IMG/VR virus record: IMGVR_UViG_2585427792_000002
Source: a virus
Lineage: Duplodnaviria; Heunggongvirae; Uroviricota; Caudoviricetes
DNA length: 29,926 bases
Direction: 5' to 3' (one strand)
Positions 1,253-5,330 of the stretch are shown piece by piece. Both the position numbers and the translations under genes were made by a program. The first letter of the stretch is position 1. Every line of letters begins with the position of its first letter. The notes below the pieces were generated by a model. It was not told where the DNA came from, made no database searches, and saw only the letters and a program-made list of their open reading frames with translations.

Positions 1253-1834
1253 ATGAACAACTCATGGTGGCAGGAACTAATGCATTTTTTCCTGCAAGGA
1301 ATGACACTTAAACAGTTGATTCATATGCTAATCATCCTGATCATATTGATTATTGTTATGCCGGTAAGCGTAAAAGAATGGATAAACCTGCATAATCCAG
1401 AAATCCTTCCTCATTACTGGATGTATTACATCCTGTTGTTTTGCGTTAGCTATGTGCTTAACGGCGTTGTTAATTCCGCTTATCACGCTGTGACTGAAAG
1501 AATTGAGGTATTCGCTGCTCAGAAGCGCAAATCTAAAGAAGAAAAATATGTGCAAGATTTGTTTGATTCGTTAACTCTTGGAGAAAGAGCGTATTTGGCA
1601 TTCGCTGTAGCCGCTAATAACCAGCTACAAACGGAAAAGGGCGCTCATGAATCAATTTCATTGCTCAAAAAAGGACTCCTCGTTCGAAGGCCTCCTGCTG
1701 TTGGATATCCTGATACCGACCGTTTCGTTATCCCTGAAAGCTATAGACATGAGTGCTACATTAGGTTTGCCGGGAAGGCAGACAGCCTTATGGATGAACT
1801 TATCGCTCAGGATAAGCATGGCAAAAACAAGTAA
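1253..1834 (+). CDS. sieB: SieB superinfection exclusion protein (193 aa, membrane)
   Basis: ORF-track protein MNNSWWQELMHFFLQGMTLKQLIHMLIILIILIIVMPVSV... matches lambda SieB from memory; hydrophobic N-terminal segment; opposite strand to the pL operon as in lambda. Confidence 0.85.
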   Translation: MNNSWWQELMHFFLQGMTLKQLIHMLIILIILIIVMPVSVKEWINLHNPEILPHYWMYYILLFCVSYVLNGVVNSAYHAVTERIEVFAAQKRKSKEEKYVQDLFDSLTLGERAYLAFAVAANNQLQTEKGAHESISLLKKGLLVRRPPAVGYPDTDRFVIPESYRHECYIRFAGKADSLMDELIAQDKHGKNK

Positions 1835-2289: not shown

Positions 2290-2420
2290 TCCAGCGTCCT
2301 GCTGACGGTTAAATAGTACGATATGTACTTTACAAGATCAATACAATTTGTTGTAAGTTGGCGTGGTTTTTTATAACGCTTTGTATTTAATAGTGTTGTT
2401 TTTTAGCGTGGATGTATTGC
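2290..2420 (-). promoter_or_regulatory. Probable pL promoter / OL operator region
   Basis: AT-rich intergenic DNA between the cargo-operon terminator and nutL. Contains ATATGTACTTTACAAG and the palindrome TACAAtttgTTGTA; the ATATGTACTTT motif recurs (reverse complement) in the OR region. Exact -35/-10 not resolved. Confidence 0.3.
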
Positions 2421-2527
2421 CTCGGCGATGTAAGGAGAGATCAGAATTGCGTGGTTTAGTGGGTTGCATCTATTTATTTTTCAATAAATATAATTGGTTA
2501 TGTGTTTTTAGGTGGGCGAACGTGAGG

Positions 2528-2554
2528 CAAAGAAAACCCGGCGCTGAGGCCGGG
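2528..2554 (-). terminator. Intrinsic terminator ending the cI-cargo operon
   Basis: Plus-strand CCCGGC(2537-2542)/GCCGGG(2549-2554) stem with 6-nt loop; on the minus-strand transcript it is followed by UUUUCUUUG (complement of 2528-2536). Lies just 3' of the 250-aa gene stop at 2560. Confidence 0.5.
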
Positions 2555-2559
2555 GTGTA

Positions 2560-3312
2560 TTATGCTGCAAGTCTCTTAACCCAAGTCTCTCTTTTGGAGA
2601 ATGGTAGAACTTGGCTTGATTCATGGAAGAGTAAGGAGAGTTGTTGCATTTGATCACCAATTGCTTCGCTGTCTATAACAACAAATCTGTTGTTATACTC
2701 CTCACTTGAAGCTTTAAGATCAATTAGTTTCCCAAGCAATGAGTAAGCACTATTCCAGCTTCCTCCGTGTTTCACGCTTGATGTAAAAACGTATTTAGGT
2801 ATGTCGGTTTTTATTGTTACAGGGACGGTAATTTGATGTCCACTCAAGCCATATACGTTTTCACGAAGAGAAAGTGCGTCTCTAAGCTCTGTGTGATATA
2901 GATAATCAATAACCATACTTTCAAACTTTTCAGCTTGAACTGGCTGATACCAGTCTAACGACAAAGTTGATGCGAGTATACCAGCTCTAATTATGTTCGA
3001 TGTAATCGCACCGACATCCTTTTCTGTTGCCCAAGCAATGATTTCTCCTCGAGCATTGAGTTCTGCGCCTTCTTTAAGCAGTAATTGTCGTATCTCATCA
3101 AGTCGTTTTTTGGTAAGCGAGATCCCTCTTGCCTCCATATTCATTAAGGCATCGCATCTGTCACTAACTAAATACCTACCATTGACTTCACGGATAAAGG
3201 CACCGACATGCTCTCCATCATCACAGTAAGTGAATGGACTGATAATTCTCAAGGTCTTGCCTATTGGATGGCATTCGAAACCTAGTTGTGAGATCACTGT
3301 TGAGCACATCAT
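2560..3312 (-). CDS. Hypothetical protein (250 aa), distal gene of two-gene cargo operon in the rex slot
   Basis: ORF-track ORF; ATGATG start overlaps the TGA stop of the upstream 185-aa ORF (translational coupling); AT-rich relative to flanking phage genes; no family I can recognise from sequence. Confidence 0.75.
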   Translation of the reverse strand: MMCSTVISQLGFECHPIGKTLRIISPFTYCDDGEHVGAFIREVNGRYLVSDRCDALMNMEARGISLTKKRLDEIRQLLLKEGAELNARGEIIAWATEKDVGAITSNIIRAGILASTLSLDWYQPVQAEKFESMVIDYLYHTELRDALSLRENVYGLSGHQITVPVTIKTDIPKYVFTSSVKHGGSWNSAYSLLGKLIDLKASSEEYNNRFVVIDSEAIGDQMQQLSLLFHESSQVLPFSKRETWVKRLAA

Positions 3313-3866
3313 ATTCCAAACCCCATTTGCCCCGACTCATCTTCAAGCGGTAAAGGTATTCTCCCAGAGTAAGTTATGTTCAGATGTTTACAGAAGTAAT
3401 TCCAATACCCTACCAGGTCATCTGGGTTTATGTCATCTTCGATTGGAAACGCTATTCTATCACTATAGTATCCAGCTTCTTCATAGTATACATGGTAGTG
3501 AGCACCGTAAATGATATCTTGGTACTTCGGATGATCGACCTTGTAACTATTCGTGTGTTTGTCAAAGTGATAGGTATCTACCGCGAAAACCCTCTTGTTA
3601 TGATAGAAAGCAATAATATTTATTTTAGGGTAAGAAATCGGGTCATCAGGTTCTGAATCCTGATCTGGTTTCCATTTCAGTTCAAACTTTAGCCCTTGTA
3701 TAGGTATACAATCCTCATCCAAGGGGATGATATGGGCTTGTAGCCACATATCAGAGCGACTTGGTTTCTGTTTCCATTTAACGCCAGAAAAGTTAACTAT
3801 TTTTTTACAATAAAGTACTTTATCAACTTCTACTTGGCTTGGCTGATAATCATCTATTTTTGCCAA
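3309..3866 (-). CDS. Hypothetical protein (185 aa as drawn), proximal gene of two-gene cargo operon
   Basis: ORF-track ORF immediately downstream of cI on the same strand. Drawn start is TTG at 3864-3866; the first in-frame ATG is 39 codons later (codon at 3747-3749), so the start is uncertain. Asp/Tyr/His-rich; no recognisable family. Confidence 0.7.
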   Translation of the reverse strand: MAKIDDYQPSQVEVDKVLYCKKIVNFSGVKWKQKPSRSDMWLQAHIIPLDEDCIPIQGLKFELKWKPDQDSEPDDPISYPKINIIAFYHNKRVFAVDTYHFDKHTNSYKVDHPKYQDIIYGAHYHVYYEEAGYYSDRIAFPIEDDINPDDLVGYWNYFCKHLNITYSGRIPLPLEDESGQMGFGI

Positions 3867-3905
3867 TGTTTACCGCCCTGTAAATTGTAGATAAAAGTGG
3901 TTTCA

Positions 3906-4565
3906 TCACCCAAACGTCTCTTCAGGCCATTGGCTGGCGATAACTTTCCCCACAACGGAACAACTCTCATTGCATGGGATCATTGGGTATTGTGGGTTTA
4001 GTGGCTGTAGAAACACCTGACCGCTATCCCTGATCAGTTTCTTGAAGGTAAATTCATCACCACCAAGTCTGGCTATGCAGAAATCGCCGGGCTCAACAGC
4101 TTGCTCAGGGTCAACCAGAATTAACATCCCGTCAGGAAAGCTGGGTTTGGAACCTGTTGGTGCGGTCATTGAGTTACCTTCAACCTCAAGCCAGAATGCA
4201 GAGTCACTGGCTTTTTTGGTTGTGCTTACCAATCTCTCCGCATCGCCTTTGGTAAAGGTTCTGAGTTCTGGAGAGAACATCCCAGCCTGAACATGAGAAA
4301 AAACAGGGTACTCATATTGTTTTTTAACTGGGGCCGATGAGTATTCGCCAACAGGTGAAAATGTCCCGTCGTGGTTGAATGATATGTTATCAATACCAAG
4401 GTATTTAAACACCACACCAATATCACTAAGAGATGGATGACGAGATCCGCGCAACCAGTGTCCAATCCCACCCTGCGTCATACCTAGCTCTTCGGCTAAC
4501 TTCTCTTGAGTTATGCCGAGCTCTTTCATTCTGGATCTAGCCAGTTCATACCATTTCATTTTCAT
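3906..4565 (-). CDS. cI: CI-type prophage repressor (HTH N-domain + LexA/S24-like autocleaving C-domain)
   Basis: C-terminal portion ([26 protein letters not shown]...[12 protein letters not shown]) matches lambda cI from memory; N-terminal domain ([37 protein letters not shown]...) is a different HTH. Start ATG at 4563-4565 chosen for the AAGGA Shine-Dalgarno; ORF track extends to 4607. Confidence 0.85.
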
Positions 4566-4676
4566 GTCCTTATTATTACGCTCTGTACTGGAACCATCCA
4601 TGCACAATGTGTATTTTTACTTGTATTCGCAAAGTACATATTGTATTTTTTTATTCGTGTTTACTATGGAGGGCAT
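4566..4676. promoter_or_regulatory. OR-type divergent control region (pRM / pR and operators)
   Basis: 111-bp AT-rich spacer between divergent cI and cro starts; contains TTGTA/TACAA half-site repeats and AAAGTACATAT, which recurs reverse-complemented in the putative OL region; GGAGGG Shine-Dalgarno before cro. Confidence 0.5.
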
Positions 4677-4892
4677 ATGAGCAACCTACGAAAATATCGA
4701 GAGTCACTGAATATCTCTCAAACAACACTTGCTAAGGCAGTTGGATGCACACAGGGAGCTATCGGACATTGGGAATCTGGTCGTCGCTTCCCAGACCTTA
4801 AAACATGCCGTGCTCTTGTTGCGTGCCTAAACAAGTTAGGCGCAAAAGTCAGTCTTGATGACGTGTTCCCGCCGGAACACAAAGCCGCTTAA
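4677..4892 (+). CDS. cro: Cro-like HTH repressor (71 aa)
   Basis: ATG at 4677 preceded by GGAGGG; product MSNLRKYRESLNISQTTLAKAVGCTQGAIGHWESGRRFPDL... has an HTH signature; divergent from cI across the operator region. Not lambda Cro. Confidence 0.7.
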   Translation: MSNLRKYRESLNISQTTLAKAVGCTQGAIGHWESGRRFPDLKTCRALVACLNKLGAKVSLDDVFPPEHKAA

Positions 4893-4977: not shown

Positions 4978-5000
4978 TATGCGTTTCCACGCATACCTTT
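4978..5000 (+). terminator. Possible tR1-like hairpin between nutR and cII
   Basis: Stem TATGCGT(4978-4984)/ACGCATA(4989-4995) with TTCC loop, followed by CCTTTC; weak U-tract, so function uncertain. Confidence 0.3.
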
Positions 5001-5033
5001 CAACTAACTATTCACTATTGGAAATCTTAAGAA

Positions 5034-5330
5034 ATGGAAAGAACAAGTTACAGCAAACTATCACAGCGTGACGTTGATCGCGCAGAAACAGATTTACTTA
5101 TCAATCTGTCAGCTATTACCCAGCGCGGTCTGGCAAAGATGATTGGCTGTCATGAATCGAAGATAAGCAGAACGGACTGGAGATTTATTGCTTCGGTCTT
5201 GTGTGCTTTCGGAATGGCATCAGACATCAGTCCGATTAGCAGGGCTTTTAAGTATGCGCTTGATGGACTCACCAATAAAAAACGCCCGGCGGCAACCGAG
5301 CGTTCTGAACAAATCCAGATGGAATTCTGA
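5034..5330 (+). CDS. cII: CII-like transcriptional activator (98 aa)
   Basis: C-terminus ...LTNKKRPAATERSEQIQMEF matches lambda CII from memory; N-terminal part differs from lambda; position between cro/nutR and O. Confidence 0.8.
   Translation: MERTSYSKLSQRDVDRAETDLLINLSAITQRGLAKMIGCHESKISRTDWRFIASVLCAFGMASDISPISRAFKYALDGLTNKKRPAATERSEQIQMEF

Follow-up and report, generated by a model that had tools for sequence, protein, structure and literature searches.

A two-gene cassette behind the repressor of lambdoid prophages, in the place of rexA-rexB, as a candidate phage defence system

The cassette and its borders

The stretch of DNA analysed here (the window; 29,926 nucleotides, IMG/VR virus record IMGVR_UViG_2585427792_000002) represents the early region of a lambdoid phage and carries a pair of genes, here called A and B, directly behind the gene of a cI-type repressor. 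Positions 2300–4700 are 100% identical to the phages ev017, ev207, PhiR57_1 and PhiR63_2, of which the Escherichia phages ev017 and ev207 belong to the genus Jouyvirus; the GenBank records of these identical phages give the gene order ral, sieB, N, two unnamed genes, cI, cro, cII, O, P and ren. Gene A (3309–3866, minus strand, TTG start) encodes a mostly β-stranded protein of 185 amino acids from a small uncharacterised family at the edge of DUF6978, and gene B (2560–3312, minus strand, ATG start) encodes a two-domain DUF1828 protein of 250 amino acids. The stop codon of A and the start codon of B overlap in the four nucleotides ATGA (3309–3312, minus strand): the plus strand reads CATCAT at 3307–3312, i.e., ATGATG in the coding direction, with the ATG of B at 3312–3310 and the TGA of A at 3311–3309, which implies translational coupling. 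A first-pass annotation of this DNA had described two coupled open reading frames (ORFs) co-oriented with cI, and the ORF positions, the overlap and the common minus strand of A, B and cI bear out this description including its coordinates.

The repressor gene itself (3906–4607, minus strand; 3906–4601 in GenBank) matches Pfam HTH_3 (helix-turn-helix, HTH) and Peptidase_S24. Its C-terminal S24 domain is like that of lambda cI and its N-terminal HTH represents a different immunity type; the records of PhiR57_1 and ev017 name the gene cI or LexA-family regulator. Gene A begins 39 nt downstream of cI on the same strand, and a sequence scan revealed no terminator-like site in this gap. From this geometry, A and B would be transcribed together with cI from pRM or pRE. 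The sequence offers no support for an additional promoter serving A or B, as promoter-like matches are no commoner in it than in shuffled sequence.

The left edge of the cargo slot is formed by an intrinsic terminator (2529–2554, minus strand), a homologue of the lambda-type terminator Timm, which consists of a 6-bp all-GC hairpin (2554–2537, minus strand) followed by the T-run TTTTCTTT. The hairpin and U-run that the first-pass annotation had placed downstream of B are thereby confirmed; in fact, the hairpin agrees in every base with the element that GenBank lists as Timm for the lambda-immunity phage mEp332, and it is also identical in PhiR11_1. In an alignment of five phages, the similarity stops exactly at the cargo-side edge of this hairpin. 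An operator-like 15-mer, AAAGTACATAT[T/C]GTA, is found at 4631–4645 between cI and cro and again at 2317–2333, which places the oL/pL region to the left of the terminator. Consequently, the A-B cassette fills the interval between the cI stop codon and Timm, the place that rexA-rexB holds in lambda.

The same replacement is seen behind a lambda-immunity-type repressor. In five prophage contigs from IMG/VR (L041–L044 and L100), the pair stands in the place of rexAB behind a cI gene that is 97–99% identical to the cI of mEp332, CL707, HK244 and HK542, phages whose GenBank records annotate lambda-type oR and oL. These contigs, together with the borders at the cI stop codon and at Timm, uphold the earlier assignment of the pair to the rexA-rexB slot. 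A-B thus has the slot and the cI strand in common with lambda RexA-RexB, and each is a two-gene unit that a lysogen presumably transcribes along with the repressor. In contrast, RexB is a polytopic membrane protein, whereas neither A nor B contains a transmembrane segment (maximum Kyte-Doolittle hydropathy over 19 residues of 0.45 for A and 1.19 for B), and no homology of A or B to RexA or RexB was found with PADLOC at E-values up to 1, Pfam or NCBIfam.

At least three other cargoes occupy the slot in phages that share their cI with this window, namely a pair of 283 and 163 amino acids in PhiR11_1 (L003, 3257–4637), a protein of 173 amino acids in Stx2a_WGPS8 (L106, 2053–2574) and a nuclease-like NYN-domain protein of 285 amino acids in phage E212 (L107, 1763–2620; Pfam E 7e-9). 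Such different cargoes behind the same repressor mark the slot as a cargo hotspot and A-B as one of its mobile cassettes. Apart from a weak match of the NYN protein of E212 to the PADLOC model HEC-09, none of these other cargoes matched a known defence system; all of them are to be regarded as further candidates.

With regard to base composition, A and B together have a GC content of 39.6%, compared to 46.3% for cI, 49.9% for N (1851–2195) and 49.3% for the whole window. The impression of an AT-rich block gained in the first-pass annotation is correct as far as the comparison with the window goes, but the sieB/ral side is about equally AT-rich (41.1% GC for sieB, 41.4% for positions 1–1250 of the window), so that this feature is not peculiar to A and B. 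The gene sieB (1253–1834, plus strand; Pfam E 2.5e-22, phrog_1301) lies between ral and N, and its presence gives the phage at least two candidate exclusion functions around pL.

Distribution and conservation of the pair

Further loci were collected from a scan of species-representative genomes (eight loci from Izhakiella, Yersinia, Providencia, Xenorhabdus, Pantoea and Thorsellia, plus one probable contaminant), from a scan of IMG/VR, where 114 relatives were found and 80 of them retained, and by exact-sequence look-ups for Aeromonas and Klebsiella. Gene A stands directly upstream of B in 99/99 loci containing B; the pair therefore travels together, the point on which a survey of related prophages had initially been proposed. 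All 55 unique modules show overlapping A and B genes, either by ATGA (43 modules) or by 13 nt (12 modules). When 46 unique A and 52 unique B sequences were aligned by codon, the median ratios of non-synonymous to synonymous substitution rates (dN/dS) were 0.089 and 0.051, respectively, and both genes are under strong purifying selection. This selection, together with the pairing in every locus, indicates more than a chance association. Of the two partners, A diverges faster, as reflected by identities of 37% for A and 54% for B at the distance of Aeromonas. Moreover, the start codon of A is GTG or TTG in 54 of the 55 unique modules (TTG at 3864–3866 in this window); that so weak a start is maintained this regularly suggests that selection keeps down the expression of A and, through the coupling, that of B.

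The prophages carrying the cassette reside in Enterobacterales, Aeromonas and Pasteurellaceae. Their nearest upstream ORFs on the same strand comprise 55 distinct sequences; clustering at 50% identity reduces them to about 16 groups. HTH phage repressors make up most of these groups and include long proteins with HTH and S24 domains as well as the HTH-only repressors of about 130 amino acids found in Rac-like prophages; the remaining groups are a DUF3024 gene for 113 amino acids and a few short, probably spurious ORFs. Even among the E. coli modules, which are ≥99% identical to each other, at least three different repressors are linked to the pair. A-B is consequently a mobile cassette, having been transferred among numerous immunity types and phage backbones. 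Among complete E. coli genomes, 241 of 5426 contain the cassette, always as a single chromosomal copy and always with ≥99% identity; carriers include the probiotic Nissle 1917, ABU 83972 and the type strain ATCC 11775. With its sharp borders, the cassette represents a clean natural replacement of rexAB and occurs in about 4% of these E. coli genomes; the mechanism of rexAB, to our knowledge, is still incompletely understood after 60 years.

Remote relatives of A were found in Pasteurella, Rodentibacter, Mannheimia, Thiothrix and metagenomes, and every one that was looked up is followed by a DUF1828 gene. These remote pairs mostly lie right behind an S24 repressor, and every locus examined is a prophage immunity region, with the exception of a chromosomal site in Mannheimia. 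There, the pair is located between a gene for a YadA-type adhesin and housekeeping genes, and no repressor is found upstream.

A few loci deserve a separate description. In Izhakiella- and Providencia-type prophages, the DUF3024 gene lies between the repressor and A (L012, 4044–4385; L014, 4053–4394; L015, 4052–4393; and L059–L064) and forms a second small cargo gene of the same operon. In the IMG/VR contig L047 (3588–4001), only residues 48–185 of A align, with B and cI intact; A may be disrupted here, which would make the contig a natural experiment on the tolerance of B by itself, or a sequencing error may be involved. The probable contaminant L019 (NZ_JBHSON010000334.1, a contig of 518 bp in an assembly of Actinomadura rugatobispora) spans the A/B junction with a B segment 82% identical to that of E. 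coli and is almost certainly an enterobacterial contamination.

Predicted features of proteins A and B

Protein B matches Pfam DUF1828 with its residues 26–110 (33.5 bits, cut-off 22), belongs to phrog_1960 (function unknown) and was modelled by AlphaFold2 (AF2) with a predicted local distance difference test score (pLDDT) of 84.9. Fold matches of this model form two groups. The first contains YbjN, DUF2170 and type III secretion chaperones, and the second contains PD-(D/E)xK nucleases (Can2 9.7, PspGI 9.4, NgoMIV 9.2 and Cfr10I 7.4). Judging from the order of the secondary-structure elements in the model, the first group would correspond to the N-terminal half and the nuclease group to residues ~125–250. 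In the N-terminal DUF1828 domain (2983–3237, minus strand), the residues DDGEH (31–35), D51, D54, N58, E60 and R62 are invariant, and this accumulation of invariant charged residues suggests a binding or active site.

The predicted restriction-endonuclease-like domain (residues ~125–250; 2563–2940, minus strand) shows the topology alpha-beta-beta-beta-alpha-beta and contains the invariant residues H159, K173, D198, R209 and D214. H159 lies ahead of strand 2 and K173 at the beginning of strand 3; the canonical pattern D...(D/E)xK is absent from B, as no conserved acidic residue stands two positions before K173. In the model, D198 on the following helix could mimic the arrangement in Cfr10I and NgoMIV. 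This domain may hence have a variant active site, or it may be a non-catalytic module for nucleic-acid binding. At the C-terminus, B ends with the residues LAA (2563–2571, minus strand), and L-[A/V]-A is found at this position in 42/43 unique B sequences. This tail resembles an ssrA-type recognition tail for ClpX and may be a degron, which we regard as a lead only.

Protein A shows a match to DUF6978 below the Pfam cut-off (22 bits, E 2e-4, cut-off 29.6), and some of its remote relatives carry a precomputed match to this family (PF22398). It belongs to phrog_2017 (function unknown). The family is small: an exhaustive HMMER search with a profile of A yielded 20 representatives in 1.84 billion proteins at E ≤1e-3, and a second profile built from remote members retrieved 34 clusters. 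The AF2 model (pLDDT 81.8, predicted template modelling score 0.80) is mostly β-strand; a fold search found no match to known folds, and Foldseek against viral structures returned one uncharacterised siphovirus protein. Searches of the PDB by sequence, with single sequences and with profiles, gave chance-level matches only. A match of A to the designed 'SAKe' protein 8pjr (E 4e-6) was dismissed as compositional, since no stretch passes alone.

As stated in the first-pass annotation, A is rich in Asp, Tyr and His (10.8% D, 8.6% Y, 4.3% H). The residues D97, H104, N106, G121, H123 and H125 are invariant family-wide, including members at ~20% identity, and the segment GAHYHVYYE (residues 121–129; 3480–3506, minus strand) contains the GxHxH core that alignments show to be invariant across the family. 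Judged by this conservation, the cluster D/HxN/GxHxH is likely a metal-binding or catalytic site. A reading of GxHxHxxxE as a cupin motif was rejected because the fold search gave no cupin and the Glu is not kept in remote relatives.

The C-terminal tail of A (SGQMGFGI, residues 178–185; 3312–3335, minus strand) is conserved and predicted to be disordered, with a pLDDT below 50 for residues 175–185. A pattern of Q-x-x-hydrophobic is present within the last seven residues in 46/48 family members, with tails such as QMGFGI, QIGLGL, QIGLPL, QMSLL and QGRLLL. Bacterial β-clamp-binding motifs follow the patterns QL[SD]LF and QLxLxL, as in DinB (QLVLGL), MutS (QMSLL) and Hda (QLSLPL). We take the tail of A to resemble such a motif, again as a lead only; alternatively, it may bind the chaperone-like domain of B.

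The statement of the first-pass annotation that neither protein matches a known family requires a distinction. It remains correct with respect to RexA and RexB and to any characterised relative, but B falls within DUF1828, A and B can each be assigned to a PHROG family, and each shows a weak match to the PADLOC candidate PDC-M24 described below. Searches of A and B against NCBIfam returned nothing meaningful.

Possible functions of the cassette

Repressor-linked cargo is the classic home of prophage exclusion systems, and we regard A-B as probably defensive cargo of this kind, being one of many untested defence candidates. For the more specific proposal that the two genes form a lysogen-expressed two-protein anti-phage cassette, we see an even chance. 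Under this proposal, the portable cassette, which temperate phages of Gammaproteobacteria carry within the single operon that remains active in a lysogen, would protect the lysogen from other phages by exclusion or abortive infection. B would be the more conserved working part, a sensor/effector built on a nuclease fold, whose DUF1828 domain with its acidic/His patch may bind a ligand or partner and whose C-terminal domain may bind or cut nucleic acid. A, which evolves about 1.5 times faster, could serve as specificity or regulatory partner, with its disordered tail docking the complex onto B or onto the host β sliding clamp. An invading phage would then trigger the pair, and DNA replication would be stopped or DNA degraded.

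Support for a defensive role comes from PDC-M24, one of 145 untested phage defence candidates in PADLOC (CAS_00098, 153 occurrences), which owes its selection as a candidate to its location within BREX, DISARM or type I restriction-modification (RM) loci (Payne et al., 2024, preprint). In PADLOC at E up to 1, A and B matched only models of PDC-M24. B aligns with PDC-M24B over nearly its entire length (E 4.7e-10; residues 2–249 to positions 4–254 of 256), and A gives a weak match to PDC-M24A (E 4.8e-4, 18 bits; residues 104–163 to positions 79–134 of 148). In PDC-M24 as in A-B, the A gene is directly followed by the B gene on one strand; the two cassettes differ in that the former is defined by its embedding in BREX, DISARM or type I RM loci and the latter lives in prophage immunity regions. 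The similarity is remote, A probably failing the thresholds at which PADLOC calls a system, and we consider the match as independent but weak and remote genomic evidence for a role in defence.

Neither A nor B matches any of the named defence systems in PADLOC. Can2 and Card1, and loosely Shedu, combine a sensor with a PD-(D/E)xK effector. In contrast to these proteins, B lacks a CARF domain and the canonical D...(D/E)xK motif, with H159 and K173 on the expected strands, and it needs a dedicated partner in the form of A. BstA is likewise encoded by a prophage gene that adjoins the repressor and is expressed in the lysogen (PMC8585504), but acts as a single protein.

Several points weigh against an anti-phage function. 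Slot genes of lambda also tune the decision between lysis and lysogeny, RexA biasing the switch toward the lytic state (PMC11077077), and position alone is therefore no proof of defence. PDC-M24 is itself only a candidate, and A matches it weakly and in part. Most of the other cargoes of the slot have no assigned function, and in Mannheimia indoligenes (L110, L111) the A-like/DUF1828 pair lies outside a recognisable prophage. Expression from pRM is assumed, and B, lacking the canonical D...(D/E)xK, may be catalytically dead. Furthermore, a full-text literature search found no study of A or B, of their DUFs or of their accessions, and hence no functional test; a lambdoid phage paper in Genome Research (2025) does not mention these phages.

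An alternative option, which we consider unlikely, is that A-B modulates the lysogeny switch of its own phage in a RexA-like manner, aiding the commitment to induction or stabilising lysogeny, e.g., by reading the replication fork via the clamp. The pair is nearly always located directly behind a repressor, which is usually of the RecA-cleavable S24 type, the tail of A is clamp-motif-like, and RexA acts on the switch from the same slot. A specific partnership with the repressor is, however, argued against by the promiscuity of the cassette, as unrelated repressors, at least three of them in E. coli, are combined with a module of ≥99% identity, and the approximately 16 upstream clusters, mostly repressors, include short HTH-only proteins without an S24 domain. 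The pair without a prophage in Mannheimia and the relatives flagged inside BREX and RM loci point in the same direction.

A somewhat more doubtful explanation is a toxin-antitoxin-like addiction module, in which one protein would be toxic and its partner a short-lived neutraliser; the module would mainly stabilise the prophage and affect other phages only secondarily. Consistent with this idea are the two-gene, translationally coupled operon, the non-ATG start of A in 54/55 unique modules, which suggests tightly limited expression, and the ClpX-degron-like L-[A/V]-A tail in 42/43 unique B sequences. In Caulobacter, the SocAB system comprises a clamp-binding toxin, SocB, which is controlled via ClpXP; there, the toxin is the degraded partner and SocA the adaptor. 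The tail of A recalls SocB, and the combination of a clamp-motif-like tail on A with a ClpX-type LAA/LVA tail on B resembles SocAB, a likeness that we treat as a lead only. On the other hand, Pfam, NCBIfam and PADLOC contain no toxin or antitoxin family matching A or B, no DNA-binding antitoxin domain is present, both proteins are larger than typical type II partners, and the degron-tailed B is the more conserved partner, which is the reverse of the usual pattern. Least probable among the rivals appears a lysogenic-conversion moron that alters host physiology, such as stress tolerance, metabolism or colonisation, independently of phages. Such a role would fit an AT-rich cargo in a lysogenically expressed slot that is common in extra-intestinal and commensal B2-type strains (Nissle 1917, ABU 83972, ATCC 11775), but A and B feature no signal peptide, membrane segment or signature of a metabolic enzyme, their folds point to nucleic-acid and protein binding, and, in hosts that are far apart, the cassette is almost entirely confined to phage immunity regions.

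Within the preferred reading as an anti-phage cassette, an immunity directed at replication is an elaborate variant that we put forward with little confidence. Here, the tail of A would sit on the β clamp and B would be kept scarce or turned over by ClpXP, and A would represent a new fold with a metal site formed by D/HxN/GxHxH. An upset caused by the incoming phage, e.g., a shut-off of host transcription, interference with the protease or the loading of clamps on foreign replicating DNA, could then lead to arrest of clamp-dependent replication or to cutting of clamp-loaded DNA. If this variant were true, infection would be aborted for any phage relying on host Pol III.

If A-B protects against phages, DUF1828 and the A family would each gain a first function, a PADLOC candidate family would be validated, and the defence would possibly act at the sliding clamp. 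The presence of the cassette in Nissle 1917, in reference strains and in sequenced lambdoid phages makes it directly testable by cloning or deletion. Nissle 1917 gives the cassette visibility in the clinic and in biotechnology; part of the resistance of this strain to lambdoid phages has been attributed to this prophage and a Nissle 'phage repressor (pr)' was reported to give ~200-fold protection against lambda and stx phages (Bury et al., 2018). Protection by A-B may explain part of this resistance. The primer PR_P2_fwd of that study matches positions 4988–5006 of the window exactly, just upstream of the cII ORF (5034–5330), and the stated amplicon is 410 bp; the reverse primer has no match in the window within one mismatch. 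From the position of PR_P2_fwd, the protective Nissle gene seems to be the cII homologue and not cI; the paper deals with the cII region rather than with cI or A-B. In the Nissle genome (NZ_CP058217.1; L020, 2025–3630), the cassette is located in a lambdoid prophage next to icd, in which the integrase is truncated by a frameshifted IS3-family element and the stretch from sieB to the integrase remnant is missing. This prophage is thus defective, yet its immunity region is intact.

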